64,000 nucleotides of DNA from a virus. Its lineage: Duplodnaviria > Caudoviricetes. The position numbers were made by a program, and so were the translations under genes. The notes below the pieces were generated by a model, which saw nothing but the letters and a program-made list of their open reading frames with translations, searched no databases and had not been told where the DNA came from. Shown here piece after piece: positions 17,757 through 46,905 of the stretch (position 1 is its first letter; each line of letters opens with the position of its first letter). Where the stretch lies: IMG/VR virus record IMGVR_UViG_3300034155_000052, positions 3,776 to 67,775 of that record; one strand, 5' to 3'.

Positions 17757-18030
17757 GTCATAACCCCCACCAAGCTTCTAGCTTGGAAGGGGCTTGTTAG
17801 AGTCATTTAATGCCAAATTTAGTACATAAACAAGTTAAATCAATGACTAGAGTATCCAGTCTTCCTACTCGTAAGAGTAGGAAGATTAAGGAAACTGAAT
17901 CATCTTCTCGTGGTAGAGAACAATATATTTCTAATGTTTCTCTAGTTGGAAATCCCTATGATGATCAGTCTCGAAGAGAGCAATTATCCAAATTGTCGCA
18001 AGATAATTTGGACTGGAAGGTAACTTCCAA
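17757..18030 (+). ncRNA. putative omega-RNA scaffold of IsrB element 1 (guide would be the ~16-20 nt 5' of 17757; 3' boundary approximate)
   Basis: Conserved across three copies; GNRA-capped hairpin 17987..18012 covaries with 45778..45803 and 38620..38631. Confidence 0.6.
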
Positions 18031-19069
18031 ATCTGTTACGAAAATATATGTTCCAGTAATTTCTTTTGTTGGTATTCCATTAATTCCTTGCTCTCCAAGA
18101 AGAGCAAAGGAATTAATGATAAAACATAAAGCGAAGAAGCAATGGAAATATGGTATTTTCTATATTAAATTAATTGAAAGAGATATAGGAAATATTCAAG
18201 AGATATCATGTGGAATAGATTCTGGATCTAAGAGAGAAGCAATTACTGTTAAATCCAAGAATAAAACATTTATTAATATTTTAGCTGATGCTAGAACGGG
18301 AATAAAAGAATCTATTGAAGTTAGAAGAAATATGAGAAGAGCAAGAAGGTTTAGGAAAACTCCTTGTAGAAAGAATAAATTAAATAGAAAAAGGAATATA
18401 AAATTTATTCCTCCATCAACTCGGGCAAGATGGAATTCTAAATTAAGGTTAATAAATATATTAAAAAAGATATATCCAATATCAATATATGTTGTAGAAG
18501 ATATAAAAGCGAACACAAAAGAAGGAAAGAAAAATTGGAATAAGAATTTTTCACCATTAGAAATAGGAAAGAAATATTTCTATAATATATTAAAAACATA
18601 TGGACATCTTATTTTAAAAGAAGGATGGGAAACAAGTGAAAAAAGAAAAGAATTAGGTTTGGTGAAAACCTATCATAAATTAGACAAAATATTTTCTGCA
18701 CATAATGTTGATAGTTGGGTTTTAGCCAATTTTCCTTTTGATATTCAAACACATCCTGAAAATATTGATATGTATTATTTCCAGCAAATTGAATTACATA
18801 GAAGACAATTACATATGTTACAGTTTGCTAAAGGAGGAAAAAGGAAAAGATATGGAGGGACAGTATCTCTTAGAATTCCTAAAGGAACAGTAGTAAAAAT
18901 AAAATATAAAAAGAAAGAAATAATATGTTATATTGGTGGAAATATGAATGGAAAATTATCAATCCATAATATGGAGAATGGGGAAAGAATAAGTAAAAGT
19001 ATAAATAAAGAAAATATAAAATATATGGGATATATAACTAAGTGGAAAGTAGAAAAAATAAAAGGATAA
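17810..19069 (+). CDS. isrB: IsrB (HNH-less IscB relative, RNA-guided RuvC nickase), copy 1; true start may lie downstream
   Basis: PLIP (PLMP/RRXRR domain), RuvC-I GIDSGS, Arg-rich bridge helix RRNMRRARR, RuvC-II VVEDI, RuvC-III HNVD; no HNH insert. Confidence 0.8.
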   Translation: MPNLVHKQVKSMTRVSSLPTRKSRKIKETESSSRGREQYISNVSLVGNPYDDQSRREQLSKLSQDNLDWKVTSKSVTKIYVPVISFVGIPLIPCSPRRAKELMIKHKAKKQWKYGIFYIKLIERDIGNIQEISCGIDSGSKREAITVKSKNKTFINILADARTGIKESIEVRRNMRRARRFRKTPCRKNKLNRKRNIKFIPPSTRARWNSKLRLINILKKIYPISIYVVEDIKANTKEGKKNWNKNFSPLEIGKKYFYNILKTYGHLILKEGWETSEKRKELGLVKTYHKLDKIFSAHNVDSWVLANFPFDIQTHPENIDMYYFQQIELHRRQLHMLQFAKGGKRKRYGGTVSLRIPKGTVVKIKYKKKEIICYIGGNMNGKLSIHNMENGERISKSINKENIKYMGYITKWKVEKIKG

Positions 19070-19260
19070 CAAGAAGGAGTAAAGCAATTCCTCCCTGCCT
19101 GCGTAGCATACAGGGTTCACTTGCTCATCTTGATGGAAGTGTTAGTAAAGGTGTTTCAATATATACTTTAAATACTCATCCTTATGAAAATTTAAATTTA
19201 TACTCAATTGTTTCGATAGAACCTGCATGGGTTTTGCACCATAAATAACAGGGTTAATAT

Positions 19261-19494
19261 ATGGATGTTGTTAAAGGAAAGTTTGGTTTATTATTAGATG
19301 ATAAAGGTATTATTTGGAAACAAATATCTGAGGAAATAGATATTGATTGTCCAGAAGATATGTTTGTTGAGGTTCTTCATTGTAAAAGTGAAAACTCTTA
19401 TGATTATATTAAGCTTTCACGAGAAGAGAGTGAAGAAGTGCATTTCTTAAATAAATTATGGCATCAAAAAACCAATACACCACATCATGCCTAG
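19261..19494 (+). CDS. hypothetical protein
   Basis: 77-aa ORF. Confidence 0.6.
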   Translation: MDVVKGKFGLLLDDKGIIWKQISEEIDIDCPEDMFVEVLHCKSENSYDYIKLSREESEEVHFLNKLWHQKTNTPHHA

Positions 19495-19516
19495 GCATTT
19501 TTAAGTATTTTCAGGA

Positions 19517-20323
19517 ATGACAATTCTGGAATTAAAAACCTGTGTTGGGATAGGAGATTTAATATTTATATACTCTTATACTGAACAAGTAAAACATTTA
19601 TATTCAAAAATTAAGATATGTCCTGAATATTCTATTTTGTCAGCATACAGATCTGGATCTAAAGAGAGCTACGACTTTTCCAAAAAGTTTGTAGCTTTTT
19701 TGTTTTCTGAGCCTTATTATATTCTTGGAGAACATTGCAATGGCAAACCTTTAACATTATCATGGGATTTGTTCAATGGTGATATTAAAGCTCAATATGT
19801 TGATTTAAGATCAAAATTATGTTTACCTGAAAGGGTAGATATAGGAACTGATGATTATATTGTAATAAATACAAAAATAAGAGATTTTGATATACGATTT
19901 TGGAATAAAATAAAACATGATTTTTTTAAAACATTAAGATCAACATCTAAAAAAATTGTATTAATGGGAGAGCGCAGGATTGGTATAAATAAAGAACAAA
20001 ACATATATACTGTATATGAAGATTTAAAAGATGCGTTATATGGAATTGATCATTTAGATTTTACCAAAGAAGTTATATTAGATTATCCTAATTTTGATGA
20101 GTTGAGGAGAGATTTAACAATTATAAGGGATGCCAAAGCATCTATAAACTTTGGAGCCAGTGGGATGGCAGTATTATCACCCACTGTAGCAGATGTATCT
20201 ATAGGGTATAGATTAGATAATTATACTTTCTTTAATGATTTTCTATTAGGAATAAATAAAAATTCTTTGGTAACAAATAATATTGAAGATTTCCTTAGAT
20301 TTACCAGTGGTATTTGCTTATGA
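19517..20323 (+). CDS. GT9-like (GT-B) glycosyltransferase-like protein, paralogue A
   Basis: N-terminal GIGD motif; late DLTII..AKASINFGASG resembles the GT9 LI..A...I..DSG motif. Confidence 0.5.
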   Translation: MTILELKTCVGIGDLIFIYSYTEQVKHLYSKIKICPEYSILSAYRSGSKESYDFSKKFVAFLFSEPYYILGEHCNGKPLTLSWDLFNGDIKAQYVDLRSKLCLPERVDIGTDDYIVINTKIRDFDIRFWNKIKHDFFKTLRSTSKKIVLMGERRIGINKEQNIYTVYEDLKDALYGIDHLDFTKEVILDYPNFDELRRDLTIIRDAKASINFGASGMAVLSPTVADVSIGYRLDNYTFFNDFLLGINKNSLVTNNIEDFLRFTSGICL

Positions 20324-21144
20324 AATCTATATTTGAAACCAAAACCTGTGTTGGAATAGGTGATTTAATATTTACTTATTCTTTAACAGAGCAGGTTAAG
20401 CATATATATTCAGAAATTAAAATATGTCCTGATTATTCTATTTTAAAATCCGTAAGATCTGGATCAAAAGAAAGTTATCTTTTTACCAAACAATTTGTTT
20501 CTTTATTATTTAATGAATCATATTATACAGTATTGGATGAGTTGAATTTACCAACAATAAATCCAGAAGTATTATCTAAATCATTAAATAGAAAAATTAA
20601 ATTTGTTGATTTAACAAATAAGACAAATCTATTTATACCAATAGATATTGGTATTGAAGATTATGTGGTTATCAATACTAAAATAAGAGGGATAACAAGA
20701 ACAAATTTTGATTTGGTTAAAGACAGGTTTTTTGAAGTTATTAAAAATAGTAAAAGAAAAATTGTATTAATTGGAGAAAGAAATAATGGAATTAATAAAG
20801 AAGCTGAATATTGTAATATTTATACAATTTATAATGACCTTATAACGGTGTTAGCAGGAAAAGATTATATAGATTTTACCAAAGAAGTTATATTAGATGT
20901 TCCAAGTATAGATGAATTTAAAAGAGATATAACAATTATTAAAAACGCTAAAGGAAGTATAAGTTTTGGGGTTTCTGGAATAGTTACACTAAATACGGCT
21001 ATATCTAAAACATGTGCAGTATATAGATGTGATGATTTTGATTATTCTTATTTAGATAATTCGTTTATTGGTATGGGTACTAATAAAATGGTAACTACAA
21101 ACATTGATAAATTTATTGAATTTATTACCAAAATGTATTTTTAG
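20320..21144 (+). CDS. GT9-like glycosyltransferase-like protein, paralogue B
   Basis: Aligns along its length with 19517..20323 (KTCVGIGDLIF, RSGSKESY, VINTKIR, DFTKEVILD). Confidence 0.5.
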   Translation: MKSIFETKTCVGIGDLIFTYSLTEQVKHIYSEIKICPDYSILKSVRSGSKESYLFTKQFVSLLFNESYYTVLDELNLPTINPEVLSKSLNRKIKFVDLTNKTNLFIPIDIGIEDYVVINTKIRGITRTNFDLVKDRFFEVIKNSKRKIVLIGERNNGINKEAEYCNIYTIYNDLITVLAGKDYIDFTKEVILDVPSIDEFKRDITIIKNAKGSISFGVSGIVTLNTAISKTCAVYRCDDFDYSYLDNSFIGMGTNKMVTTNIDKFIEFITKMYF

Positions 21145-21152
21145 GGAGAAAT

Positions 21153-21488
21153 ATGCCACAAGATATAATTGATCAAAAAATTAAAGAATATGTAAAAATA
21201 ATTTGCTCACAAAAAACTCTTCCAGAAGTTAAAGAATATATAGAAACTGATAATTTAGGAGAGGTAATTGATAAATTAATAATTGTACATATTCGTACTT
21301 GGATGCTTGAAGATATGATTCATGATACTATATCAGATCAAGAATTAGCTAATATTAAACGTAAAATTGATATTTGTTTTAAACAAAAACGTCCAAAATT
21401 AATTGAGGCTATAAATCAATTGGTTCAAAAAGCCGTTATAGAAGGAAAATCTTTGATTGAAGATAATGTAAAATCCTACAAGGTTTAA
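21153..21488 (+). CDS. DUF4254-like protein
   Basis: LGEVIDKL..V..RTW.LED.I......KRKID...R.KLIEAIN. Confidence 0.6.
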   Translation: MPQDIIDQKIKEYVKIICSQKTLPEVKEYIETDNLGEVIDKLIIVHIRTWMLEDMIHDTISDQELANIKRKIDICFKQKRPKLIEAINQLVQKAVIEGKSLIEDNVKSYKV

Positions 21489-21500
21489 TATTTTTATACA

Positions 21501-21535
21501 AAAAAGGCCTCTTGATTTTTTCAAGAGGCCTTTTT
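21501..21535. terminator. bidirectional intrinsic terminator
   Basis: AAAAAGGCCTCTTGA-TTTTT-TCAAGAGGCCTTTTT between convergent genes. Confidence 0.85.
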
Positions 21536-21552
21536 CTATTTAAAAACTTAAA

Positions 21553-21900
21553 TTATTTAATGGTAATAGATCTTGTTTTAGCAGATTGCTTTTTTTGCAA
21601 CACTATAGATAATATACCGTTTTTCAATTCTGCTGAAATATCATCCTGATCAAATTCTGTTGATAATTTCCAGCTTTTTACAAACTTGCGCTGCTCTTTA
21701 GCTGTATAAATAGCTAATACATTATTATTTATTTCAATATTAATTTGATCTTTATCAAATCCAGGAATTTCAATTTTTAAAGTTAATTGATTATCTTTTT
21801 CCTCTGTTTTGTATTTTGTATACAAATCTTCAAAACACTTATGTACATAATTACCTAACAACACATCTTCAGGACATCTAAAATACCAATCGTGAAACAT
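21553..21900 (-). CDS. small heat-shock protein (Hsp20/alpha-crystallin)
   Basis: EIPGFDKDQINIE...F.KSWKL...DQDDISAELKNGILSIVL; AAGGAG RBS. Confidence 0.9.
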   Translation of the reverse strand: MFHDWYFRCPEDVLLGNYVHKCFEDLYTKYKTEEKDNQLTLKIEIPGFDKDQINIEINNNVLAIYTAKEQRKFVKSWKLSTEFDQDDISAELKNGILSIVLQKKQSAKTRSITIK

Positions 21901-22035
21901 ATTATTTTCTCCTTTTAAAATAAGAATTCTTTGGTAAAATCATATACCAAGAAGTTCTCTAACACTCGAAATATAAGCATCGTATTTTTCCTGTCAACAC
22001 CACCTGTGTGTTTTTTTTATTGGGGTTTGTAGCCC

Positions 22036-23280
22036 TCATACTACAATGGTTAATTTGTTTGAGCTTCTAGAAACAGCAGTATAAAGCCATCGTTTATAAG
22101 TATCATCATCTACAGGAGCCGGTCTTTCATTATAAACAATTATATTATCTAATTGATTACCTTGAAATTTATGACAAGTAGAAGCATACCCATAATCAAA
22201 TAACATTCCTGTTTCATTCCAATGACTTACATCCATTCCAAATTTCTTTAATTCATCAAAAGAACTAAATGTTTTTTGAAACCCAAATTGATGTTTACAG
22301 ATATTACTTATTGTTTTATTTATACCTTCATCTGGGAAGTTAACCCTTGCTTCAATAAAATCATCATCTAATTCAGTAATAGAAGAATGAATATAGCCTC
22401 TAAACCCATTATATATAGGATCTTTTACATGACCTTTAGAATTTCTTAAACAAACCACTAAATCATTAGCTACTGGTTGTTTTAAATATGATCCAAATAT
22501 CATTTTTCTAATTGTGGTATTTAAATTACACCTTGTAGTATTTTTATAACACAAAATAGCAGTATCTAATAATTTTATTGGATCTTTTTCTTTTAAATAG
22601 ATAGATTCAATTAATGGAATATATTCAGATTTTTTAATAATTTGAACATGATTGTTATTTTTATAATTAGTTGGAATTTTACCTGTTTCTCTAACTGTCA
22701 TAGCTAGAGAAATAATTGGATTTCCTTCAGCTTGACGATGTATTTTCTCTAGTTTAATGTGTGGTTCTTTCATTAGACAAAACTTACCTTCAATTGGAGG
22801 TAATTGGCCATGATCACCAACCGCGAGAATATCAACATTATAACTAGATAAGTCTTTAAAAATATCTTCAGATATCATTGAAGCCTCATCTAATACAATA
22901 ACATCATAATCTAAAACTTCTTTTTTTGCCCAATAAATAATTTCACCTTTATCATTTTCTATTGGTTTATATATTAATCTATGAATTGTTCCACAATAAT
23001 GAGATTCTTTATTGGATATAATTATACCATTTGCTTTTAATTTATTACCCAATACACTAGCGGCACGACCAGATAAAGCACAAAAAGCAAATCTAATTGA
23101 TTTATCAAATTCTTTTGCTAATAAAGAGACTAAAAATGTTTTTCCACAGCCTCCTAAGCCGGCTAATGTTAATAATTTTGGATTTTTTTGTTTAGAAGTA
23201 ACACATCCACCACCACCTAACCATTTGGCAATGAGCTTATATGCTTTTTCTTGATCTTTTGATAGTGTTATTTGAGACAT
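22036..23280 (-). CDS. Dda/RecD2-like SF1B helicase
   Basis: GLGGCGKT, TIHRLIY, VLDEASM, VGDHGQLPP, L.KIHRQ, YASTCHKFQG, WLYTAVSR; ATG start at 23280. Confidence 0.9.
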   Translation of the reverse strand: MSQITLSKDQEKAYKLIAKWLGGGGCVTSKQKNPKLLTLAGLGGCGKTFLVSLLAKEFDKSIRFAFCALSGRAASVLGNKLKANGIIISNKESHYCGTIHRLIYKPIENDKGEIIYWAKKEVLDYDVIVLDEASMISEDIFKDLSSYNVDILAVGDHGQLPPIEGKFCLMKEPHIKLEKIHRQAEGNPIISLAMTVRETGKIPTNYKNNNHVQIIKKSEYIPLIESIYLKEKDPIKLLDTAILCYKNTTRCNLNTTIRKMIFGSYLKQPVANDLVVCLRNSKGHVKDPIYNGFRGYIHSSITELDDDFIEARVNFPDEGINKTISNICKHQFGFQKTFSSFDELKKFGMDVSHWNETGMLFDYGYASTCHKFQGNQLDNIIVYNERPAPVDDDTYKRWLYTAVSRSSNKLTIVV

Positions 23281-23346
23281 TATGTTATAATATTCACGAG
23301 ACAAGTTGATCGACACGCTTTATTTAAAATAATAGGAGAATTAAAC

Positions 23347-24126: not shown

Positions 24127-24165
24127 AATATTGGTATTATGTTTAAGAAATTTGCATCAAATATA

Positions 24166-24194
24166 TTGACAGATCTTTCAGATGAGTGTATAGT
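24166..24194 (+). promoter_or_regulatory. possible sigma70 promoter
   Basis: TTGACA-17 nt-TATAGT; lies inside a possible short 52-aa ORF, so chance cannot be excluded. Confidence 0.45.
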
Positions 24195-24580: not shown

Positions 24581-24581
24581 T

Positions 24582-24934: not shown

Positions 24935-27079
24935 ATGACAGCATTAATTATTGTAGAATCTCCGGCAAAAATTAAAACAATTTCAAAAATCCTTGGTCCA
25001 AATTATGTTATTAGAGCTACAGTTGGACACATTATAGATTTAGCAAAAGGTAAAGGAGGAGATCTTGGAATAGATATTTTAAATGGTTTTAAACCAAGAT
25101 ATGAAGTTTTACCAGATAAAAAAGATAAAATTAAAGCAATTGTGGATGCCGCAAAATCAGTTGATATTATTTATGTAGCTTCCGATCCTGATAGAGAAGG
25201 TGAAGCTATAGCTTTTCATATAGCCAATCAATTAAAACATTTAAATAAACCAATTAAACGCATTGAGTTTAATCAAATTACCAAAAAAGTAATTGAGAAT
25301 GCCGTAGAAAACCCACGTGATTTTGATCAAAATCTATTTGATGCTCAACAAGCGCGTAGGGTTTTAGATCGTATTGTTGGTTTTATGGTTTCTCCATTTA
25401 TTTCAAAGAAATTAAATGATAAACTAAGCGCTGGAAGAGTACAATCTGTTGTTTTACGTATGATTGTTGATAGGGATCGGGAAATATCTTCATTTGTTCC
25501 TGATGTTTATTATAATATAAATGCAACATTATCAAAAACACAAGATAAAGCAGATTGTTTTGTTGCTAAATTTCAACAAAGAGTGGAAAACGAACAAGAA
25601 GCTATTAAAATTAAAGAAGATTTGGACAAATCAACATATGAAATATTTGATATTCAAACTAAACCAACTCCTAGAAAAGCAAATCCTCCGCTTACTACTT
25701 CAGCTCTCCTACAAGAAGCCTCCACAAAACTAAAGTTTAAAGCCGATAGAACTACTAAAGCAGCTCAATCATTATATGAAGGTGGGTATATTACCTACAT
25801 TCGTACAGATGCTGTTAGGAATTCAGAGGAATCAATTATAGAGGTAAGGAAGTATATTACTTCAAATGGATTTAGTATTCCAAAATCTCCTAATGAATAT
25901 CAAAACAAAGATGGGGCACAAGACGCACATGAAGCTATTAGACCTACACATGTAGATATGTTACCAGAAAAAATTCCTGTTGAAACAGATCAGCAAAATG
26001 TATATGAATTAATTTGGAGAATGTTTGTAGCATCTCAAATGGAGCCGGCTATTTTTGAGGTTGTTAAGGTTAGTATTAAAGCTTCTTCTGGTCATCATCT
26101 TGTTGCGGAAGGGAAAATCCTTAGAGAAGAAGGTTGGATGAGTGTTATGAAACCTCTCCTTAAAAAGGATAAGGATGTTATACTTCCAATTTTAAATATA
26201 AAAGATAAACTTTCTTTGGTAACACCCAAAGTTAAAATGGAGAAAAGCCAAACAAAACCACCGGCTAGATATTCGGAAGCATCTTTAATAGCAGAATTAG
26301 AAAGAAAAGAAATAGGAAGACCGTCTACGTATGCTAGTACAATTTCTAGAATAGCTACAAGAAGATATGTTAAAGATACTCCAAATGGTTTAGTACCAAC
26401 AGATTTAGGGTTTACTGTAATAGATAATTTAAAAGATTCTTTTTCTTTTATGGATTATTTATATACAGCTAATATGGAAAAGAAACTAGATGAAATAGCT
26501 CATGGTAAATTGGAATATATTCCAATGATGACGGAGTTTTTTGAAGGATTCAAAAATGAATTTCAAAAAGCACGAGGGGAACAGGGCATGAATGCAGGTA
26601 TAAAATGTCCTAAATGTGGAAGTGATATGGTTGTAAGAAAATCTAAATATGGATTTTTTGCAGGGTGTGTAAGATATAAGGGTGGGTGTGATGGAATTGT
26701 AAGCATTCTTGTTGAAGATGGTAAAGTATTAGAAAAAGAACACAAAGCTAAAGTAGATGATAGTATTAAATGTCCAGATTGTGGATCTGGAATGGTATAT
26801 AGACCAGATGGAAGGTTTGGTCCATTTTATTCTTGTTCTAATTATCCTAAGTGTTATGGTAAAAGAAAAACTCCATTTGGAAAGACATGTTCTAAATGTG
26901 GAAATGAATTATATGCTACATTATTTAATGGAAATCTAAAATTAGCATGTATGGGATATCCTAACTGTAAAAATATTGAAGATATTCCAAGTGGGTCTAA
27001 TGTAGATTGGTTAGACCCTGAAAAAATAACCCCACCAACATATGATAAAAAAGTTGAAAAGGTTTTGTTAAAATATTAA
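24935..27079 (+). CDS. topA: DNA topoisomerase I (type IA) with C-terminal zinc ribbons
   Basis: IVESPAK, ASDPDREGEAIA, SAGRVQS, ITYIRTD (catalytic Tyr), AHEAIRPT, IGRPSTYA, repeated CP.CG zinc ribbons. Confidence 0.95.
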   Translation: MTALIIVESPAKIKTISKILGPNYVIRATVGHIIDLAKGKGGDLGIDILNGFKPRYEVLPDKKDKIKAIVDAAKSVDIIYVASDPDREGEAIAFHIANQLKHLNKPIKRIEFNQITKKVIENAVENPRDFDQNLFDAQQARRVLDRIVGFMVSPFISKKLNDKLSAGRVQSVVLRMIVDRDREISSFVPDVYYNINATLSKTQDKADCFVAKFQQRVENEQEAIKIKEDLDKSTYEIFDIQTKPTPRKANPPLTTSALLQEASTKLKFKADRTTKAAQSLYEGGYITYIRTDAVRNSEESIIEVRKYITSNGFSIPKSPNEYQNKDGAQDAHEAIRPTHVDMLPEKIPVETDQQNVYELIWRMFVASQMEPAIFEVVKVSIKASSGHHLVAEGKILREEGWMSVMKPLLKKDKDVILPILNIKDKLSLVTPKVKMEKSQTKPPARYSEASLIAELERKEIGRPSTYASTISRIATRRYVKDTPNGLVPTDLGFTVIDNLKDSFSFMDYLYTANMEKKLDEIAHGKLEYIPMMTEFFEGFKNEFQKARGEQGMNAGIKCPKCGSDMVVRKSKYGFFAGCVRYKGGCDGIVSILVEDGKVLEKEHKAKVDDSIKCPDCGSGMVYRPDGRFGPFYSCSNYPKCYGKRKTPFGKTCSKCGNELYATLFNGNLKLACMGYPNCKNIEDIPSGSNVDWLDPEKITPPTYDKKVEKVLLKY

Positions 27080-27090
27080 AGGTATAAATT

Positions 27091-28119
27091 ATGAAAAATG
27101 ATTTAAGCGAAGAGGTTATTAGAGAAAATTCATATGATTTAGACTGGTATAATGTATCAGAATATGAAAAATTAAGTGAAAGTTTAATTAGAGAATTTTC
27201 TAATAAAGTAAATTGGACAATGATATCAAGATATCAAAAACTTAGTGAAAACTTTATTAGAGAATTTTCTGATAAGGTAAACTGGGAGTTTATATCAAGT
27301 TCTCAAAAATTAAGTGAAAACTTTATTAGAGAATTTTCTAATAAGGTATATTGGGAGTTAATATCGCAGTTTCAAATTTTAAGTGAAGAATTTATTATAG
27401 AGTTTTTTAATTGGTTAAATATGGATGTGATATCACAACATCAAAAGTTAAGTGAAGAATTTATTAGAAAATATCCTCATAAGGTATATTGGTATAATGT
27501 ATCAGAATATCAAAAATTAAGTGAAAACTTTATTAAAGAATTTTCTGATAAAGTAGATTGGGGTGGTATATCAATTGATCAAAAACTTAGCGAAGAATTT
27601 ATTAGAGAATTTTCTGATAAGGTAGATTGGGGTTGTATATCAAAATATCAAAAGTTAAGTGAGGGGTTTATAAGAGAGTTTTCTGATAAAATATTTTGGA
27701 AATACATATCTAAATATCAAAAGTTAAGCCAAGAATATGATTTATATATTCCCGAAACATGTTGGTTGTATAAAGATAAAGAACTTAAACGAGAATATAT
27801 TAAGAAAAATACAAATTATGAGATAATTGGAGATAAAGTAATTGCATATAAATCTTGTAAGGAAAATGGATATTCTAAATTTAATTTCCAATATTTATAT
27901 GAGATCGGGAAAGAATATGAAAGTCATGCAGATTATAATTTAAATGATCCAAATAGTTTTGGATTATCTGCTTGGACAAAAGAAAGAGCATTAGAGTATT
28001 ATAATAAAGGCAAACTATTTAAAGTAGAAATAGATTTAGAAGATATTGCTGCGGTTGTATATGAAGGAAACAAGATTAGAGCGAGTAAGATTAAAATATT
28101 AGAAGAGATTAATATTTAA
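27091..28119 (+). CDS. 22-aa Trp-repeat protein, paralogue 2 (about 9 repeats)
   Basis: Same repeats and C-terminal domain as 16510. Confidence 0.85.
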   Translation: MKNDLSEEVIRENSYDLDWYNVSEYEKLSESLIREFSNKVNWTMISRYQKLSENFIREFSDKVNWEFISSSQKLSENFIREFSNKVYWELISQFQILSEEFIIEFFNWLNMDVISQHQKLSEEFIRKYPHKVYWYNVSEYQKLSENFIKEFSDKVDWGGISIDQKLSEEFIREFSDKVDWGCISKYQKLSEGFIREFSDKIFWKYISKYQKLSQEYDLYIPETCWLYKDKELKREYIKKNTNYEIIGDKVIAYKSCKENGYSKFNFQYLYEIGKEYESHADYNLNDPNSFGLSAWTKERALEYYNKGKLFKVEIDLEDIAAVVYEGNKIRASKIKILEEINI

Positions 28120-28146
28120 ATATTTTTACCAAAGAAGATTTATATC

Positions 28147-29092
28147 ATGTTAAATGCAGAAAAAATTCATTATGATGAAAGTTGGTATAGTATATCAACT
28201 TACTATAAATTAAGCGAAGAATTTATTAGGGATAATTCTGATAAAGTACATTGGGAAACTATATCAACTAATCAAAAATTAAGCGAAAATTTAATTAGAG
28301 AGTTTTCTGATAAAGTATATTGGGGTTTATTATCAGAATGTCAAAAGCTTAGTGAAAAATTTATTATAGAATTTACCGATAAAGTAAATTGGGTATATGT
28401 GTCAAAAACACAAAAGCTAAGCGAAGAGTTTATAAGAGAAAACTCTGAAAAGGTTAATTGGTGGAAAATATCAGAAATTAAGCGAAGCGTTTATAAGGGA
28501 AAATTCTAATAAGGTACATTGGATAAATATATCAATTTTTCAAAAACTAAGTGAAGAATTTATTAGAGAATTTTCTGATAAAGTAAATTGGTATTATATA
28601 TCAAAAGATCAAAAGTTAAGCGAAAATTTTATTAGAGAATTTTCTGATAAAATACACATTAATAATGTATCAAAATATCAAAAGTTAAGCCAAGAGTTTA
28701 TTAAAGAATATAATTTAGAAATATGTCCCACATGTTGGTTATATAAGGATAAGGAATTTAAGAGACAATATATTAAGAAAATTAAATGTTATGAAATTAT
28801 TGGAGATAAAATAATTGCATATAAATCTTGTAGATTAGATGGACATTCTAAATTTAATTTCCAATATTGTTATAAAGTTGGGGGAGAATACGAATGTCAT
28901 GCAGATTATAATATAACTAATATAGATAGCTTTGGATTATCAGCATGGACAAAGGAAAGAGCGTTATTATATTATGATAGAGGGAAGTTATTTAAGGTAG
29001 AGATAGATTTAGAAGATATTGCAGCAATAATTTGTGAAGGAAACAAGATTAGAGCTTCCAAAATTAAAATATTAGAAGAAATTATTATCTAA
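28147..29092 (+). pseudogene. 22-aa Trp-repeat protein, paralogue 3, frameshifted near 28468
   Basis: Repeats and the full C-domain continue in another frame to TAA at 29090..29092. Confidence 0.8.
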
Positions 29093-29340
29093 TGAAAAAA
29101 ATACAAATACCAAATACATTAAAAAATATATTATTAGTGGAAAATACTAGTAGACAAAATAAATTGTGGTTAGTTACTACTTGGAAACATTTTGAAAACT
29201 GGTATATTGATTGGAAATGGGCTGGAGAACCAATGAAATCTAGAATGTTATTTAAATTTGCTCCAGAAGACAAATGGATTGAAGCAAAAAGTTTTGAAGA
29301 AGATTTATTTCCAACATATAAATTTGCTAAAGATAAATAA
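29092..29340 (+). CDS. hypothetical protein
   Basis: 82-aa ORF, start overlaps the upstream stop. Confidence 0.6.
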   Translation: MKKIQIPNTLKNILLVENTSRQNKLWLVTTWKHFENWYIDWKWAGEPMKSRMLFKFAPEDKWIEAKSFEEDLFPTYKFAKDK

Positions 29341-38292: not shown

Positions 38293-38388
38293 GTTTGTTA
38301 AAGTTTTAATTTTTTATTATTTTGTAAAATTCTTAATTTCCTTGATGTTTTGTAAAGTTTCCAGTTGCGTTCTCACTGTTTTTCTGCT

Positions 38389-38650
38389 GTTATAACCCCA
38401 TCAAGCCTCCAGCTTGGAAAGGGGCTTGTTAGAGTCGTTTAATGCCAAATTTAGTACATAAACAAGTTAAATTAATGACTAGAGTACCCGGTCTTCCTAC
38501 TCGTAAGAGTAGGAAGATACAGGAAACTGAATCATCTTCTCGTGGCAGAGAAAAATATATTTCTGATACTTCTCTAGTTGGAAATCCCTATGATGATCAG
38601 TCTCGAAGAGAGCAATTACCGGAGCAATCCGTGAGGAAGGTAACTTCCAA
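38389..38650 (+). ncRNA. putative omega-RNA scaffold of element 2 (boundary approximate)
   Basis: Homologous to 17757 ff.; shortened CGGA-GCAA-TCCG hairpin at 38620..38631. Confidence 0.55.
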
Positions 38651-39677
38651 CCATTGGATTTCCATTATTTCTAATAATGAGAATCCTCTTATGCCTTGTC
38701 ATCCTGCTAGAGCAAGACAATTACTTAAACAAAATAAAGCTAAAAAACAATTTGCTAATTCTATTTGTTATCTTAAACTAATTAAAAGAAATATAGGAAA
38801 CATTCAAGATATTTCTTGTGGAATTGATTCAGGATCTAAAAGAGAAGCGATAACTGTAAAATCAAAGAATAAAACATTTATTAATATTTTAGCTGATGCT
38901 AGAATAGGAGTAAAAGAATCTATTGAAATTAGAAGAAACATGAGAAGATCAAGGAGGTTTAGGAAAACTCCTTGTAGAAAGAATAAATATAATAGAAAAA
39001 GAAATGTAAATTTTATTCCTCCGTCAACAAGAGCAAGATGGAATTCTAAGTTAAGGTTGATAAATATATTAAAGAAGATATATCCAATATCGATATATGT
39101 TGTTGAAGATATAAAAGCTAAAACATTAAAAGGTAAAAGAAATTGGAATAAGAATTTTTCTCCATTAGAAGTTGGGAAAACATATTTCTATAATATTATT
39201 AAAACATATGGAAGTCTTGTTCTAAAAGAAGGTTGGGAAACATCTGAAAAAAGAAAATCTTTAAATTTGGTGAAAACTAATAAAAAATTAGATAAAATAT
39301 TTTCCGCACATAATGTTGATAGTTGGGTTTTAGCAAATTTCCCATTTAATATTCAAATATATCCTGAAAATATTGATATGTATTATTTCCAACAAATTGA
39401 GTTACACAGAAGACAATTACATATGTTGCAGTTTTCTAAAAGAGGAAAAAGAAAGAGATATGGAGGGACAGTATCTCTTGGAATACCTAAGGGAACAGTA
39501 ATAAAAGTAAAATATAAAAAGAAAGAAATATATGCTTATGTTGGTGGAAATATGGAGGGGAAATTATCTATACATAATTTAGAAACAGGAAAAAGAATTT
39601 GTCAAAGTATAGATAAGGATAATGTTGAGTTATATAAAGGATGGATAGAAAAATGGAAAACAGAAAAAATAAAATGA
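38442..39677 (+). CDS. isrB: IsrB, copy 2
   Basis: PLMPCHPARARQLL, GIDSGS, RRNMRRSRR, VVEDI, HNVD; no HNH. Confidence 0.8.
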   Translation: MPNLVHKQVKLMTRVPGLPTRKSRKIQETESSSRGREKYISDTSLVGNPYDDQSRREQLPEQSVRKVTSNHWISIISNNENPLMPCHPARARQLLKQNKAKKQFANSICYLKLIKRNIGNIQDISCGIDSGSKREAITVKSKNKTFINILADARIGVKESIEIRRNMRRSRRFRKTPCRKNKYNRKRNVNFIPPSTRARWNSKLRLINILKKIYPISIYVVEDIKAKTLKGKRNWNKNFSPLEVGKTYFYNIIKTYGSLVLKEGWETSEKRKSLNLVKTNKKLDKIFSAHNVDSWVLANFPFNIQIYPENIDMYYFQQIELHRRQLHMLQFSKRGKRKRYGGTVSLGIPKGTVIKVKYKKKEIYAYVGGNMEGKLSIHNLETGKRICQSIDKDNVELYKGWIEKWKTEKIK

Positions 39678-39790
39678 TAACAAAAAGGAGTAGAGCAATT
39701 CTTCCATGCCTGCTACGCAGACAGGGGTTTCCTTGCTCATTTCAAATGATATTCGATAGTTGGCTCTTAACAGGAAAGAATTATTAAAAT

Positions 39791-40692: not shown

Positions 40693-40712
40693 TTAATTTT
40701 TTGGTAAAAACT

Positions 40713-40850
40713 ATGTACGAAAATAATAAATTTAAATATCTCTATTGGGAAGATTTTGAGTTTGAAACAGATAATCTTGAAATTAAAAAACAAAATAAAG
40801 AAATCGATATCGATTCTTTAACTTTAAAAGAAATTAAGAAAGAAAAATAA
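40713..40850 (+). CDS. small hypothetical protein (45 aa)
   Basis: Hand-translated MYENNKFKYLYWEDFEFE...; fills the gap exactly. Confidence 0.4.
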   Translation: MYENNKFKYLYWEDFEFETDNLEIKKQNKEIDIDSLTLKEIKKEK

Positions 40851-41459: not shown

Positions 41460-41460
41460 A

Positions 41461-42039: not shown

Positions 42040-42040
42040 C

Positions 42041-42340
42041 ATGTCGAAGAAAAAGTTTTTTATTAAGGAAGAAGATGGAGTATATTCAGTAGACAGGTCA
42101 TTTTTTAATGATATAGAAACGAGACAAGAGGCATTGGGGATAGCTCTTAGAACGTTGGGGGAGATACATAATACAATGTATGAAGAAGTTGAAGCTGGGA
42201 TTCAATATATTGGATCTGTTAAAGTAATTATTGGTTTACAAAGATGTATAAATGAACTTAATCTTAAGTGGCCTGGTTTAATATCTGAAATATATTCTGT
42301 TCAGAGAAAAATTAATGGAAAATTATTAGGTTGTTCTTAA
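42041..42340 (+). CDS. hypothetical protein
   Basis: ORF track 42008..42340; ATG at 42041. Confidence 0.6.
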   Translation: MSKKKFFIKEEDGVYSVDRSFFNDIETRQEALGIALRTLGEIHNTMYEEVEAGIQYIGSVKVIIGLQRCINELNLKWPGLISEIYSVQRKINGKLLGCS

Positions 42341-42371
42341 TAATTATGTTTACCAAAGAAAGATTTATATT

Positions 42372-43364
42372 ATGTTAAATGAAGAAAAAGATTGGGATGA
42401 AATATCCCACACATTTGGATTAAGTGAAGAATTTATAAGAGAAAACGCTGATAAATTAGATTGGGGACTAACATCAAGTTTTCAAAAATTAAGTGAAGAT
42501 TTTATTAGGGAATTTTCTGATAAAGTAGATTGGCAATATATTTCAATATCCCAAAAACTTAGTGAGGATTTTATAAGAGAATTTTCAGAAAAGGTATCTT
42601 GGAGAGATATATCAATTCACCAAATACTTAGTGAGTCATTAATTAAAGATAATGTTAATAAAGTAAAATGGTATTATATATCAGAAGGTCAAAAGCTTAG
42701 TGAAGAATTTATTAGAGAATTTTCTGATAAAGTAGATTGGAAACTAATATCAAAATATCAAAAACTTAGTGAAGGTTTTATTAAGGAATTTTCTGATAAA
42801 GTAGATTGGTATAATATATCGGTTTATCAAAAACTTAGTGAAGGTTTTATTAAGGAATTTTCCTATAAAGTAGATTGGGCTTGTATATCTGTATGTCAAA
42901 AATTAAGTGAAAAATTTATAAGAGAAAATTTAAAACAATTAAATTTTGATTATATATCTTGGTATCAAAAATTAAGTCCAGAATATATTAAAGAATATAA
43001 TTTAGAGATATCAGAAAATTTTTGGTTATATAAGGATAAAGAATTTAAACGAGAATATATTAAAAACAATACAGAATATGATATTATTGGAGATAAAGTA
43101 ATAGCATATAAGAGTTGTCGATCAGATGGATATTCTTTATATAATTTTCAATATCATTATGAGGTTGGTGGAGAATATGAATGTCATGCAAATTCCGATA
43201 CAGAATACGAGGATAGTTTTGGATTATCTGCGTGGACAAAAGTAGGTGCATTAGCTTGTTATTCTAAAGGAAAATTACTTAAAGTAGAAATTGATTTAGA
43301 TGATATTGCCTGTATAACGCTTATAGATAAAAAAATTAGGGCAAGTAAAATTAAAATATTATAA
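42372..43364 (+). CDS. 22-aa Trp-repeat protein, paralogue 4 (about 9 repeats)
   Basis: Same repeats, C-domain and leader. Confidence 0.85.
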   Translation: MLNEEKDWDEISHTFGLSEEFIRENADKLDWGLTSSFQKLSEDFIREFSDKVDWQYISISQKLSEDFIREFSEKVSWRDISIHQILSESLIKDNVNKVKWYYISEGQKLSEEFIREFSDKVDWKLISKYQKLSEGFIKEFSDKVDWYNISVYQKLSEGFIKEFSYKVDWACISVCQKLSEKFIRENLKQLNFDYISWYQKLSPEYIKEYNLEISENFWLYKDKEFKREYIKNNTEYDIIGDKVIAYKSCRSDGYSLYNFQYHYEVGGEYECHANSDTEYEDSFGLSAWTKVGALACYSKGKLLKVEIDLDDIACITLIDKKIRASKIKIL

Positions 43365-43415
43365 GAGATTAGTTTTTAAATATTATTATACTTTTACCAA
43401 AGAAAGATTTATATT

Positions 43416-44144
43416 ATGTTAAACGAAGGAAAAGATTGGGACAAAATATCATATACACCAGGATTAAGCGAAGAATTTATTAGAGAAAATTCTGATAAAG
43501 CATGTTGGATTTGTATATCCAGATTTCAAAAACTAAGTGAAGAATTTATTAGAGAGAATGCTAATAAAGTAAACTGGGATTATATATCGTGTTATCAAAA
43601 GCTTAGTGAAACATTTATTAGAGAGTTTTTTGATAAAGTAAATTGGGAATATATATCAATATATCAAAAACTAAGTGAAGGATTTATTAGAGAATATTCT
43701 GATAAAATATATTTGAATAATATAGTAAAATTTCAAAAGTTAAGTCCAGAATTTATTAAAGAATATAATTTAATAATTCCAGAAACAAATTGGTTTTATA
43801 AAGATAAAGAATATAAGAGAGAATATATTAATAAAAACACAGAATATGAGATAATTGGAGATAAAGTAATTGCTTATAAAACATGTAGATCAGATGGATA
43901 TTCTAAATATAATTTCCAATATTATTATGAAGTAGGAAAAGAATATGAAGCTCATGCAGATTATAATATAGATGAAAATGGTTTTGGTTTATCGGCGTGG
44001 ACAAAAGATGGAGCATTATCATACTGTAATAATGGAAAACTATTTAAAGTAGAAATAGATTTGGAAGATATTGCCGCTATTGTTCATGAAGGTAATAAGA
44101 CAAGAGCTTCTAAAATTAAAATATTAGAAGAAATTAGTGTTTAA
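43416..44144 (+). CDS. 22-aa Trp-repeat protein, paralogue 5 (about 5 repeats)
   Basis: Same repeats, C-domain and leader. Confidence 0.85.
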   Translation: MLNEGKDWDKISYTPGLSEEFIRENSDKACWICISRFQKLSEEFIRENANKVNWDYISCYQKLSETFIREFFDKVNWEYISIYQKLSEGFIREYSDKIYLNNIVKFQKLSPEFIKEYNLIIPETNWFYKDKEYKREYINKNTEYEIIGDKVIAYKTCRSDGYSKYNFQYYYEVGKEYEAHADYNIDENGFGLSAWTKDGALSYCNNGKLFKVEIDLEDIAAIVHEGNKTRASKIKILEEISV

Positions 44145-44149
44145 AACCC

Positions 44150-44596
44150 ATGATTATTACAAATATATCTTTATTAAAACCGGTTTGTGAATTGGTTTTA
44201 CCAGAAGAAGTAGATGATTTAATAAAAAAACTAGAGGAAGAACTTTTAAATTCTAAAGATTTAGGGTTTCCTGGAGTTGGTTTGGCTTGTCCTCAAATTG
44301 GAATACCTAAATCCTTAGCAATTGTAAGAATTGGTGATTTTAAACTTAATTTGGTTAATGCTAAAATTATAGAGAAATATCATCCTTTTATCTTTGATGG
44401 TGAGGGTTGTCTCAGTTTTCCTAATCTATTTATTCAAACGAATAGATATAGAGAGATTGTAGTTGATAATAATTTGGTTAAGCCTTATAAATTTATTATA
44501 ACTGATTTTGCGGCTGTAGTAGTACAACATGAATTAGATCATTTAAACCAGGTATTATTACCTGATTTAGCTATACCAAAACCCCTATCTATTTGA
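44150..44596 (+). CDS. def: peptide deformylase
   Basis: GVGLACPQIG, EGCLSFP, QHELDHLN. Confidence 0.92.
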   Translation: MIITNISLLKPVCELVLPEEVDDLIKKLEEELLNSKDLGFPGVGLACPQIGIPKSLAIVRIGDFKLNLVNAKIIEKYHPFIFDGEGCLSFPNLFIQTNRYREIVVDNNLVKPYKFIITDFAAVVVQHELDHLNQVLLPDLAIPKPLSI

Positions 44597-44634
44597 TATA
44601 TAGGCATTTTTTGAGATTTGAGGGAGATTTAAAT

Positions 44635-44841
44635 ATGCAAAATGAAGAGATTCATACAGTATTTGGTAAACAAAGTACAATAATTACAACGTTGTTATTA
44701 AGAGTATATACATTAGAAAAACTAATGGTAGAAAAAAAGTTGGTAACGGAGGAAGATTTAATAAAGAAAACAGAAGAATTATCGCTTGAGTTTATTGAGC
44801 AGCTAAAAAGCAATCTGCAAAACGTTAATACTAAAAAATAA
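44635..44841 (+). CDS. hypothetical protein
   Basis: ORF track 44593..44841; ATG at 44635 after GGGAG. Confidence 0.55.
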   Translation: MQNEEIHTVFGKQSTIITTLLLRVYTLEKLMVEKKLVTEEDLIKKTEELSLEFIEQLKSNLQNVNTKK

Positions 44842-44886
44842 CTTTTTTGGTAAAAACAAACTTTAAATAAAACATAGGAAAAATAA

Positions 44887-45177
44887 ATGGACCTTAACAT
44901 TGATTTGAATATTAGTAACGGAATTAGTTTAGTAGCATTTGTAGCAACGTGGTGCAAAGTTTCAAAAAAAATTAAAACCACAATACAAAAAGTATCTACA
45001 GAATTTCCAGATATTCAATTTCATGAAATGGATGTAGATGATAATCCTGTTATGGCTAAGAAATATAAAATTAGTAGCATTCCTACTGTAATTTTGTTTA
45101 AAGATGGTAATGAAATTACAAGAATTCTAGGATCTTTTAAAATTGATGCTTTAAGAAAAGTTTTAAGAGACGCTTGA
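44887..45177 (+). CDS. thioredoxin-fold protein with CxxS site
   Basis: FVATWCKVS, MDVDDNP..A.KY.I.SIPTVILFKDG. Confidence 0.85.
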   Translation: MDLNIDLNISNGISLVAFVATWCKVSKKIKTTIQKVSTEFPDIQFHEMDVDDNPVMAKKYKISSIPTVILFKDGNEITRILGSFKIDALRKVLRDA

Positions 45178-45207
45178 TATATAGATTTTGAGAAAGGGAA
45201 AATAAAA

Positions 45208-45501
45208 ATGAAAGAAGATACAACAATAACTGAAACGGCATCTACTAAACTTTGGAATAAGATTAAGGATGCACCAATTGATATTTTTGGATTACCAAAT
45301 CAATTAATTAGTCAATGGGTACAACGAGAAGAGAAATTAGAACAAGCAGAACCAGGTGCAATATTTTTACAATTAAAAACAGGTGCCGTTCTACCCGCTC
45401 TTGAACAAGCTTTATATTCTGTTCGACTTGGTAAATCAGAACGATTTTCTATTACCCAAGTAGATAAATATACAGTAATTAAAATTATTCCAAAAAATTA
45501 A
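45208..45501 (+). CDS. hypothetical protein
   Basis: 97-aa ORF. Confidence 0.65.
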   Translation: MKEDTTITETASTKLWNKIKDAPIDIFGLPNQLISQWVQREEKLEQAEPGAIFLQLKTGAVLPALEQALYSVRLGKSERFSITQVDKYTVIKIIPKN

Positions 45502-45509
45502 GCATGACA

Positions 45510-45547
45510 ATTCGTGGAAGAACATGCATATTTAATGCTAGGATGCT
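45510..45547 (+). repeat. 38-bp direct repeat, copy A (left flank/guide of element 3)
   Basis: 35/38 identical to 46868..46905. Confidence 0.9.
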
Positions 45548-45820
45548 GTCATAACCCCCATCAAGTTTTCATCTTGATCGAGGCTTGTTAGAGTCATTTA
45601 ATGCCAAATTTAGTACATAAACAAGTTAAATCAATGACTAGAGTATCCGGTCTTCCTGCTCGTAAGAGTAGGAAGATTAAGGAAACTGAATCATCTTCCT
45701 GTGGCAAGGAAAAATATATTTCTAATGTTTCTCTAGTTGGAAATCCCTATGATGATCAGTCTCGAAGAGAGCAATTATCCAAATTATCGAAAGGTAATTT
45801 GGACTGGAAGGTAACTTCCA
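45548..45820 (+). ncRNA. putative omega-RNA scaffold of element 3 (boundary approximate)
   Basis: Homologous to 17757 ff.; hairpin TCCAAATTATC-GAAA-GGTAATTTGGA at 45778..45803. Confidence 0.55.
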
Positions 45821-46867
45821 AATTTGTTACGAAAATATATGTTCCAGTAATTTCTTGTACTGGAGTTCCATTAATGCCTTGCTCTCCAAGGAGAGCAAAA
45901 GAATTAATGAGAAAATATAAAGCGAAAAAGCAGTGGAGATATGGTATTTTCTATATTAAATTACTAGAAAGAGATATAGGAAATATTCAAGAGATATCAT
46001 GTGGAATAGATTCTGGATCTAAGAGAGAAGCGATAACGGTAAAATCCAAGAATAAAACTTTTATTAATGTTTTAGCAGATGCTAGAACAGGAGTAAAAGA
46101 ATCTCTTGAAGTTAGAAAAAATATGAGAAGGGCAAGAAGATTTAAAAAAACTCCTTGTAGAAAGAATAAATTAAATAGAAAAAGGAATAAAAACTTTATT
46201 CCACCATCAACAAGGGCGAGATGGAATTCCAAGTTAAGGTTGATAAATATATTAAAGAAAATATATCCAATATCGATATATGTTGTAGAAGATATAAAGG
46301 CAAAAACTTTAAAAGGAAAGAAAAATTGGAATAAGAATTTTTCACCATTAGAAGTAGGAAAGAAATATTTCTATAATATATTAAAAACATATGGAAATCT
46401 TATTTTGAAAGAAGGATGGGAAACATTTAACAAAAGAACAGAATTAGGTTTAGTAAAAACAACTAAGAAATTAGATAAAATATTTTCTGCGCATAATGTT
46501 GATAGTTGGGTTTTGGCTAATTTCCCTTTTAATATTCAAACATATCCTGAAAATATTGATATGTATTATTTTCAACAAATTGAATTGCATAGAAGACAAT
46601 TACACATGTTACAGTTTGCTAAGGGAGGGAAAAGGAAAAGATATGGAGGAACAGTATCTCTTGGAATACCAAAGGGAACAGTAGTAATAGCAAAATATAA
46701 AAAGAAAGAAATATATAGTTATATTGGTGGAAATATGAATGGTAAATTATCAATCCATAATATGCAGAATGGAGAAAGAATAAGTAAATGTATAAATAAA
46801 GAAGATATAAAATATATGGGATATATAGCAAAGTGGAAAGTAGAAAAAATAACAGAAAATAACGAGC
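45548..46867 (+). mobile_element. IS200/IS605-family (OMEGA) element 3, right end missing
   Basis: Left end GTCATAACCCCC..GAGGCTTGTTAG; sequence switches to the flank duplicate where the right-end hairpin should begin. Confidence 0.8.
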
Positions 46868-46893
46868 ATTCGTGGAAGAACATGCATATTTAA
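45601..46893 (+). CDS. isrB: IsrB, copy 3 (C-terminus extended by read-through into the duplicated flank)
   Basis: PLMPCSPRRAKELM, GIDSGS, VVEDI, HNVD; no HNH. Confidence 0.8.
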   Translation: MPNLVHKQVKSMTRVSGLPARKSRKIKETESSSCGKEKYISNVSLVGNPYDDQSRREQLSKLSKGNLDWKVTSKFVTKIYVPVISCTGVPLMPCSPRRAKELMRKYKAKKQWRYGIFYIKLLERDIGNIQEISCGIDSGSKREAITVKSKNKTFINVLADARTGVKESLEVRKNMRRARRFKKTPCRKNKLNRKRNKNFIPPSTRARWNSKLRLINILKKIYPISIYVVEDIKAKTLKGKKNWNKNFSPLEVGKKYFYNILKTYGNLILKEGWETFNKRTELGLVKTTKKLDKIFSAHNVDSWVLANFPFNIQTYPENIDMYYFQQIELHRRQLHMLQFAKGGKRKRYGGTVSLGIPKGTVVIAKYKKKEIYSYIGGNMNGKLSIHNMQNGERISKCINKEDIKYMGYIAKWKVEKITENNEHSWKNMHI

Positions 46894-46905
46894 CGCTAGG
46901 TTGTT
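46868..46905 (+). repeat. 38-bp direct repeat, copy B, followed by ATGG
   Basis: ATTCGTGGAAGAACATGCATATTTAAcGCTAGGtTGtT vs copy A ...TTTAAtGCTAGGaTGcT. Confidence 0.9.

Follow-up and report, generated by a model that had tools for sequence, protein, structure and literature searches.

Three IsrB/omega-RNA elements with different predicted guides on a contig of an AT-rich, probably huge phage

The window analysed here is a stretch of 64,000 nucleotides from a virus of the Caudoviricetes (positions 3,776 to 67,775 of IMG/VR virus record IMGVR_UViG_3300034155_000052), and our subject is a family of three dispersed elements in it, each of which is almost certainly an IsrB/omega-RNA element, that is, a gene for a guide-carrying omega-RNA followed by a gene for the nuclease IsrB. 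The source record has 67,775 nt and is 16% complete according to CheckV, which gives a genome of roughly 400 kb, and homologues of one of its genes, the one entered by element 3, are found on phage contigs of 124-446 kb. This AT-rich, probably huge phage (28.8% GC in the window) originates from a peat metagenome. No terminase or capsid gene is found in the window; genes for a Dda-like helicase, an SbcC/SbcD-like nuclease and a DnaE-type DNA polymerase are, and therefore a recombination-prone replication module of phage type is present. A repeat search detected the family as three copies starting at 17757, 38389 and 45548 (families D5-D7, covering 17757-18358, 38389-38966 and 45548-46149) with 76-93% identity. 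The whole elements have sizes of 1.32-1.38 kb (Table 1). Elements 1 and 3 form subfamily A and are 90-93% identical yet lie at different sites; element 2 represents subfamily B, which has other members in several metagenome contigs. The GC content of the elements (29-30%) is close to that of the window, which suggests that they are long-term residents of such genomes.

Table 1. Features of the three elements and of the orphan right end (window coordinates)
Feature	Position	Strand	Remarks
Orphan right end, ~80 nt	6066..6148 (including flank ATGA at 6145)	+	abuts ATGA start of DksA-like gene
Phage gene split by element 1	17438..19250 (17438-17756 + 19133-19250)	+	joined frame matches P0122 to the stop
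Predicted guide of element 1	17737..17756	+	TGGACCCGTTCCAGATATTG; position by scaffold homology to DtIsrB omega-RNA
Element 1, subfamily A, 1376 nt (omega-RNA gene, isrB, right end)	17757..19132	+	repeats D5-D7; excision restores P0122 reading
Omega-RNA scaffold of element 1, minimum extent	17757..18028	+	ends at last conserved helix GGAAGGTAACTTCC; nhmmer and covariation
isrB open reading frame of element 1, 419 codons; IsrB-homologous part from near 18035	17810..19069	+	RRXRR, 8DMB, Lys396 at Q326 position
Right end of element 1: GGAG..CTCC stem, CCCTG..CAGGG hairpin, TTCAC, 12-nt spacer	19070..19132	+	
Flank of element 1 at the position of the target-adjacent motif: ATGG	19133..19136	+	
Predicted guide of element 2	38369..38388	+	GTTCTCACTGTTTTTCTGCT; position as for element 1
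Element 2, subfamily B, 1357 nt, intergenic	38389..39745	+	45 nt before uracil-DNA-glycosylase-like gene
isrB open reading frame of element 2, 411 codons	38442..39677	+	RRXRR E 6e-31; Gln at Q326-equivalent, local GKRICQSI
Flank of element 2 at the position of the target-adjacent motif: ATGA	39746..39749	+	13 nt past GGGTTTCC motif, usual spacing
Predicted guide of element 3	45528..45547	+	ATATTTAATGCTAGGATGCT
Element 3, subfamily A, right-end hairpin deleted	45548..46867 (right border approximate)	+	90-93% identity with element 1 as far as about 46860
isrB open reading frame of element 3, 430 codons, Lys at Q326-equivalent	45601..46893	+	last 11 codons read through duplicated flank
Diverged second copy of element 3 target and ATGG	46868..46909	+	3 mismatches, 12, 5 and 2 nt from the target-adjacent motif

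All three open reading frames are intact and mutually 79-89% identical as proteins, and the sole Pfam family found in each of them is RRXRR (E 1.4e-28 in element 1 and 2.4e-31 in element 3), whose match begins at model position 1-3, corresponding to residue 75-81 of the frame. The domain order is PLMP, RuvC and a TAM-interacting (TI) domain, TAM being the target-adjacent motif. The PLMP domain at the N-terminus, with its PLIP/PLMP motif at residues 90-93 of the frame, aligns to residues 1-59 of DtIsrB from Desulfovirgula thermocuniculi. The motifs PL(I/M)PC, GIDSGSK, VVEDIKA and SAHNVDSW are invariant across the three copies, and the RuvC residues D137, E230, H298 and D301 (numbering of element 1) are invariant both in them and in 15 diverse homologues. 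Only about 65 residues, with neither Cys nor His pairs, lie between RuvC-II and RuvC-III, and since this gap is so short and free of Cys, there is no HNH domain; none is matched in Pfam at E 0.1 in any of the three frames. The closest PDB entry by sequence is DtIsrB, 8DMB (E 9e-34, or 6e-57 with the family profile), and this alignment begins at the first residues of DtIsrB with 25% identity. For the 344 residues of element 1 that are homologous to IsrB, the AlphaFold model (mean predicted local distance difference test score, 79.8) has 8DMB as its top fold match over the full length, with template modelling (TM) scores of 0.77/0.81 and E 1e-26; IscB entries stand behind it, with TM scores by target of 0.39-0.68 against 0.81 for DtIsrB, and they are covered only in part. 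The modelled fold is RNase H-like, and RuvC resolvases are also matched. Thus, the initial annotation, which had proposed three IsrB/omega-RNA elements with all RuvC motifs and without HNH, agrees with what the profile searches and the fold of the model now indicate.

Conservation in the elements is highest over the omega-RNA gene, which extends for about 270 nt from their left border up to the helix GGAAGGTAACTTCC. With a nucleotide profile (nhmmer) the equivalent of this gene is matched upstream of IsrB genes whose products are only 40-57% identical as proteins, and for an alignment of 11 sequences RNAalifold gives 49 pairs, of which 28 have compensatory changes. Paired cells amount to 95.2%, against 29-44% if the partners are slid by 1-3 columns; double changes are present in 28 pairs, against 4-9 in the slid controls, and none of 500 shuffles attains the observed values. 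Such compensatory changes preserve the helices even between elements 1 and 3. Rfam gave no HEARO, omega-RNA or intron family, either for the window at gathering thresholds or for element 1 at E 10; only chance miRNA-like matches were obtained. The omega-RNA is also the stretch most widely shared across metagenome runs, and related IsrB and omega-RNA sequences are present in bioreactor and wastewater metagenomes as well.

Where does the guide end and the scaffold begin? The scaffold start GTCA(A/T)..ACCCC-hairpin-GGGGCTTG is common to 48 loci, and in the cryo-EM structure of the DtIsrB omega-RNA the same start motif follows directly after a 20-nt guide, nt 1-20 (PMC9581776). Because the GTCA at the left border corresponds to the scaffold start of DtIsrB, the left borders are placed at 17757, 38389 and 45548, and the 20 nt upstream of each are read as guides. 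By this homology the three guides, each taken from a different 5′ flank, would all be different, as had been proposed in the initial annotation. For the guide of element 1 the window holds no second match at up to 5 mismatches together with a TAM, and for the three guides no other plausible target is found in the window, except for the diverged copy beside element 3.

The isrB frame is open for 73-81 codons upstream of the IsrB-homologous part and runs into the omega-RNA gene (17810-18040, 38442-38660 and 45601-45830), so that the first ~75 codons of each frame overlap with this gene and have no counterpart in DtIsrB. The ATG of this upstream frame, which may add an N-terminal extension to the protein, is itself paired in the RNA (ATGCCAA). 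Dual coding of an N-terminal extension and the omega-RNA was considered as a general rule and rejected, the frame being open in only 10 of 41 loci.

Element 1 is the copy for which an empty allele is known. Removal of 17757-19132 joins ...GAT ATT G to AT GGA AGT..., and the restored frame runs 38 further codons to a stop. The metagenomic protein P0122, which is 90% identical over the overlap, reads VPDI followed directly by DGSVSKG across this junction and proceeds to the same C-terminus. Since P0122 is uninterrupted, it represents a natural empty allele; thus the insertion of element 1 was scarless and without target duplication, and the flank is fixed as ATGG. TTG stands on both sides of the element, which leaves a border ambiguity of 3 nt, and this is resolved because GT begins all four related elements. 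The right end is conserved with element 2, with the orphan end, with a related element in a second phage contig (L084) and with many IMG/VR loci. Scarless insertion without target duplication is typical of IS200/IS605-type integration. In IMG/VR, neither a back-translated pattern of this empty site nor a relative of the host gene was found, and the gene is missing on the related contig G001 as well. Contigs of four DNA metagenome runs were also compared over 16900-19700, and both filled junctions of element 1 are present in the probable source run. In the peat run the summed contig depth over element 1 exceeds the depth over the unique flanks 10- to 20-fold, summed depth not being equal to copy number. 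Excision of element 1 from RNA as an IStron or intron was considered too; it is rejected because no group I ribozyme is present (between 17650 and 19250 Rfam matches no intron at E 10) and because the structured RNA at the 5′ end is itself a homologue of IsrB omega-RNAs.

Element 2 has its closest relatives among proteins of the PEQS-VRKV type (P0005-P0017), and a promoter scan around its left flank gave no site on the + strand. The orphan end reported in the initial annotation is real: its core matches 15/15 at 6094, where 0.01 matches are expected by chance, and the similarity extends back into the last isrB codons. The element in the second phage contig (L084/P0017) is frameshifted and decaying, and its right end is flanked by GTGA. 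The ends of the family have subterminal hairpins, CCAAGCT-TCT-AGCTTGG inside CCCC..GGGG on the left and CCCTG..CAGGG on the right, and no terminal inverted repeats. We class the elements as non-autonomous members of the IS200/IS605 type (ISC1-like). An exact-word scan of IMG/VR detected only one related contig, a metagenome scan with the family alignment detected at least 5 distant loci, and unannotated RRXRR genes are present in GenBank phages and in about 80 IMG/VR contigs.

Which TAM do these enzymes read? ATGG at 19133, ATGA at 39746, ATGG at 46906 and ATGA at 6145, following elements 1, 2 and 3 and the orphan end, are confirmed at these positions, and with GTGA of L084 an NTGR follows all five family ends. 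This fits published IsrB TAMs, which are NTGA for DtIsrB, NTG for four orthologues including one from a viral metagenome, and NTGG for BbIsrB; in DtIsrB, G3 and A4 of the TAM are read by R323 and Q326, respectively, and exchange of the latter for Arg (Q326R) lets G be accepted as well (PMC9581776). In a profile alignment, R393 of element 1 aligns to R323 within the C-terminal TI domain, and this TAM-reading Arg is present in all three copies. The residue equivalent to Q326 is Lys396 in elements 1 and 3 and Gln in element 2 and L084, and the flank tracks it: Lys goes with ATGG twice, and Gln with ATGA and GTGA. We surveyed 41 dereplicated IMG/VR IsrB loci (among L006-L089) whose right end can be called by rule about 60-90 nt past the isrB stop. 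Gln is accompanied by A at base 4 in 35/36 of them and Lys or Arg by G in 3/4 (Fisher 0.0016, to be taken as indicative only since the loci are related). Therefore, the ATGR motif of the initial annotation holds as NTGR, while it is, from these alignments, better read as two specificities, NTGG of a Lys type and NTGA of a Gln type.

IsrB itself probably does not require the leading A, which more likely comes from the integration site and a bias to start codons. ATG follows the right end in 37/41 loci, and it opens a reading frame of at least 100 codons in 29/41, whereas among control RTGR sites 21.6% do so (p 4e-11). If the empty sites are rebuilt, an in-frame stop is located just upstream in 33/34 and a Shine-Dalgarno-like word in 16/34, against 20% expected. 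Thus, IsrB elements in phage contigs are mostly located directly before start codons, between the ribosome-binding site and the ATG; within the window, only the orphan end directly precedes a start codon. Among the rebuilt empty sites there are also about 9 ATGA stop/start overlaps.

Element 3 differs from the other two at its right end. After ...ATAACGAG it switches, at c. 46867, into a diverged 38-nt copy of the flank on its 5′ side, which is followed by ATGG (46906), and the switch point is CA(A)TTC, a 6-nt microhomology common to the right-end core and the phage gene. As a correction to the initial annotation, element 3 lacks the right-end hairpin and ends in the flank copy. Being diverged and taking the place of the right end, the 38-nt repeat is not a target duplication. 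The downstream gene, 46872-47300 (~148 amino acids), takes its GTG start and its initial 12 codons from this copy; it is full length when compared with 65 homologues on contigs of up to 446 kb and is conserved in huge phages. The gene belongs to no Pfam family, has the invariant motifs LGCYGR.ENGF and WTDHEY, and is present on many large contigs of phages (124-446 kb). The rebuilt part carries a Thr that is also found in the closest relative, P0123. The target of element 3 is the invariant LGCYGR motif itself. At IMG/VR homologous loci, 7 of the 9 in which this motif can be located have an empty site with ATGG, one has ACGG, and the motif was not found in two; the gene is absent from contigs G001 and G007.

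Because its right end is gone, element 3 is no longer movable by TnpA. TnpA cannot produce such a structure, while recombination or template switching at a microhomology can. We suppose that element 3 survives because the mismatched target copy rebuilds the interrupted conserved gene; it would be unable to transpose, would spare its host gene, and is predicted to be unlikely to cut the neighbouring copy. It is the best single hint of recombinational spread in this family, and it represents one event only.

How, then, do these elements live in the phage? We consider it probable that they are non-autonomous IS200/IS605-type (ISC1-like) OMEGA elements of two subfamilies that are expressed, nick DNA, and are kept or copied by recombination. 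What is shown of this is which protein and RNA the elements encode, where their borders lie, that element 1 was inserted scarlessly, and that the flank varies together with the TI-domain residue. Expression, nicking and recombination are drawn from what is known of the family, by which an element would be transcribed into omega-RNA with the first 20 nt, coming from phage DNA to the left of the element, as guide. IsrB with this RNA would recognise the uninterrupted form of its own site, that is, a match to the guide followed by NTGG in the case of elements 1 and 3 or by NTGA in the case of element 2. IsrB is only a nickase; it would nick the non-target strand, and in a phage replicating through recombination the nick might become a break, which might be repaired from an element-bearing copy so that the element is kept or copied. 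New sites might be reached with the help of a Y1 TnpA acting in trans, encoded in the unsampled 84% of the genome or by the host, or by recombination alone.

Several observations weigh against such a life. No match to the Y1 transposase family (PF01797) is found on the 67,775-nt record, while control genomes do match. Among the joints listed for the contigs of the four metagenome runs, only filled junctions of element 1 occur and no empty-site joint. In elements 1 and 3 an ATA stands where the start codon beside the PLMP domain is usually located, which makes the true isrB start ambiguous. Finally, our literature search found no system in which nick-driven copying has been demonstrated for IsrB. 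As to the first of these points, the record begins inside a tnpB (G000:C1:2-502, locus L091:2-502), 3.3 kb before the start of the window. This truncated gene has 166 codons with the Pfam domain OrfB_IS605 and a Cas12f1-like TNB domain, and it is cut by the contig end; the phage thus also carries an OMEGA element of TnpB type, and its tnpA partner, if any, would lie off the contig end. Among five large IsrB-bearing records that were compared, one phage record of 327 kb (IMGVR_UViG_3300023213_000432; L090, 43933-47286) has five IsrB copies together with a tnpA-tnpB of IS605 type, and the Y1 transposase is absent from three others, records of huge phages with a completeness of 92-95% and a single IsrB each. 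Since the record is only 16% complete and starts inside tnpB, the name ‘TnpA-less’, which the initial annotation had given to the elements, is true of the sampled 67.8 kb and cannot be extended to the phage.

The alternative that survives best is that homing independent of TnpA is the main route of spread: IsrB would nick an empty allele in a co-infecting phage, and recombination would copy the element into it. We regard this as possible but clearly the less probable course. Nicking intron endonucleases of Bacillus phages provide a precedent, as recombination copies the element after their nick. The process is termed ‘non-restorative homing’ in a 2026 review (PMC13565253), and the concept for phages is therefore already in print. 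The lack of a Y1 TnpA on the contig and in the three nearly complete genomes just mentioned argues for it. So does element 3, which has lost the end that TnpA requires and yet keeps its omega-RNA gene and isrB intact, and whose 38-nt duplication at the CA(A)TTC microhomology would never be made by TnpA but would be by recombination or template switching. A target in the invariant LGCYGR motif of a huge-phage gene is the typical choice of a homing endonuclease, and SbcCD-like and Dda-like recombination functions are encoded in the window. If so, IsrB of huge phages might be RNA-guided homing elements freed of their transposase, with a nick placed by IsrB in the insert-free allele of a co-infecting relative leading to copying by recombination-dependent replication. 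Element 3 might then, with a similar measure of doubt, be taken as a fossil of such an event, joined at the 6-nt microhomology and with the target of the recipient kept as a copy that has three mismatches, is protected in its seed and rebuilds the conserved gene. However, elements 1 and 2 keep full ends of IS200/IS605 type with their hairpins, for which homing has no need; copies at unrelated sites in one genome call for transposition or retargeting; the contig starts in tnpB and 84% of the genome is unseen; and the phage with five IsrB copies does carry tnpA.

It might also be supposed that the copies serve the phage as weapons, guided nicking lowering the yield of insert-free competitors (interference competition) irrespective of whether the element is copied. 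An intron endonuclease of a jumbo phage acts in this manner according to a work cited in PMC13565253, three differently aimed intact nucleases are gathered within 30 kb, and their targets are in phage genes, one of which is conserved. On the other hand, one nick makes for a weak weapon, element 1, by which a phage gene is inactivated or truncated, looks in this respect selfish rather than useful, and there is no sign of selection beyond intactness, so that we hold this explanation to be unlikely. That the copies are inert relics of old insertions is very improbable, in spite of the missing right end of element 3, the existence of an orphan end and the lack of a canonical start codon adjoining the PLMP domain, in view of frames open for 411-430 codons with all catalytic and TAM-reading residues, of the compensatory changes that keep the omega-RNA helices even between elements 1 and 3, and of the frameshifted L084/P0017, which shows what true decay looks like.

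Compared with known systems, the elements are closest to DtIsrB (PDB 8DMB; Hirano et al.), with which they share PLMP, a split RuvC without HNH, the TI domain and the fold (TM 0.77/0.81), the Arg that reads G3 of the TAM, NTG(A/G) 3′ of the target, and a 5′ omega-RNA gene whose scaffold start GTCA..ACCCC-hairpin-GGGGCTTG comes right after the guide. They differ in being 25% identical, in the frame that is open ~75 codons upstream with ATA at the usual start position, in the Lys in place of Gln at the base-4 position in two copies, and in their AT-rich (29% GC) phage host. Like non-autonomous elements of ISC1 and IS200/IS605 (Kapitonov, Makarova and Koonin 2016, as summarised in PMC13565253; mechanism in Meers et al. 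2023, PMC10055086), they have a single isrB, subterminal hairpins, no inverted repeats and no target duplication, and insert scarlessly beside a fixed short motif that doubles as TAM; unlike these, no TnpA is seen with them, the host is a huge phage and not a cell, and the right end of element 3 is replaced by a target copy. With homing endonucleases of phages, of the I-HmuI type or free-standing, they agree in principle in a single-strand cut in an insert-free conserved allele and repair from the insert-bearing genome, and in the predicted protection of the target adjoining element 3 by substitutions. Recognition in IsrB is by an RNA guide and a 4-nt motif instead of by protein, homing itself would here be a presumption, and the elements differ from phage intron endonucleases in having no intron or splicing (no Rfam group I intron). 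IscB/HEARO have PLMP, RuvC and a 5′ omega-RNA in common with the phage copies, which differ from them in lacking HNH, in having no Rfam match at E 10 and in matching IscB structures worse than that of IsrB. No paper dealing with phage-borne IsrB elements as such was found.

Some other features of the window may be mentioned. Seven genes (repeat families D1-D4 and D8) are made of 69-nt (23-codon) tandem repeats, at 16482-17443, 27033-29093, 42350-44145 and 49327-51077; they have a C-terminal part in common and also, upstream of it all, the motif TTTTTACCAAAGAAAG...ATG. Such genes adjoin elements 1 and 3, and for the repeat gene at 16900-17400 the summed metagenome depth is high in all four runs. 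A DNA polymerase is assigned to 59611-62307 by PHROGs. The initial annotation had described further selfish elements as crowded into the window, namely an intein in a nucleotidyltransferase-like gene (12713-14950) and a DnaE that ends after ~800 polymerase residues, with a large open reading frame behind it (59611-64000).

The elements are well-preserved further members of a described class, and what is known of the class is unchanged by them. Among the known relatives on the Cas9 line IsrB is, to our knowledge, the smallest, and it is used as a programmable nickase. In this respect the locus offers three natural, intact and related pairs of enzyme and RNA with readable guides, which differ at the residue for base 4 of the TAM, so that Lys with ATGG against Gln with RTGA is a ready-made prediction for TAM engineering. 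It also brings together three states, an insertion whose empty allele is known, a copy between genes, and one that has lost its end and repaired its host gene, and a comparison of these states would help to tell transposition from homing. The window is thus a compact case for the study of OMEGA elements in viruses, and element 3 shows a way in which such an element can become established and yet spare the gene that it entered.

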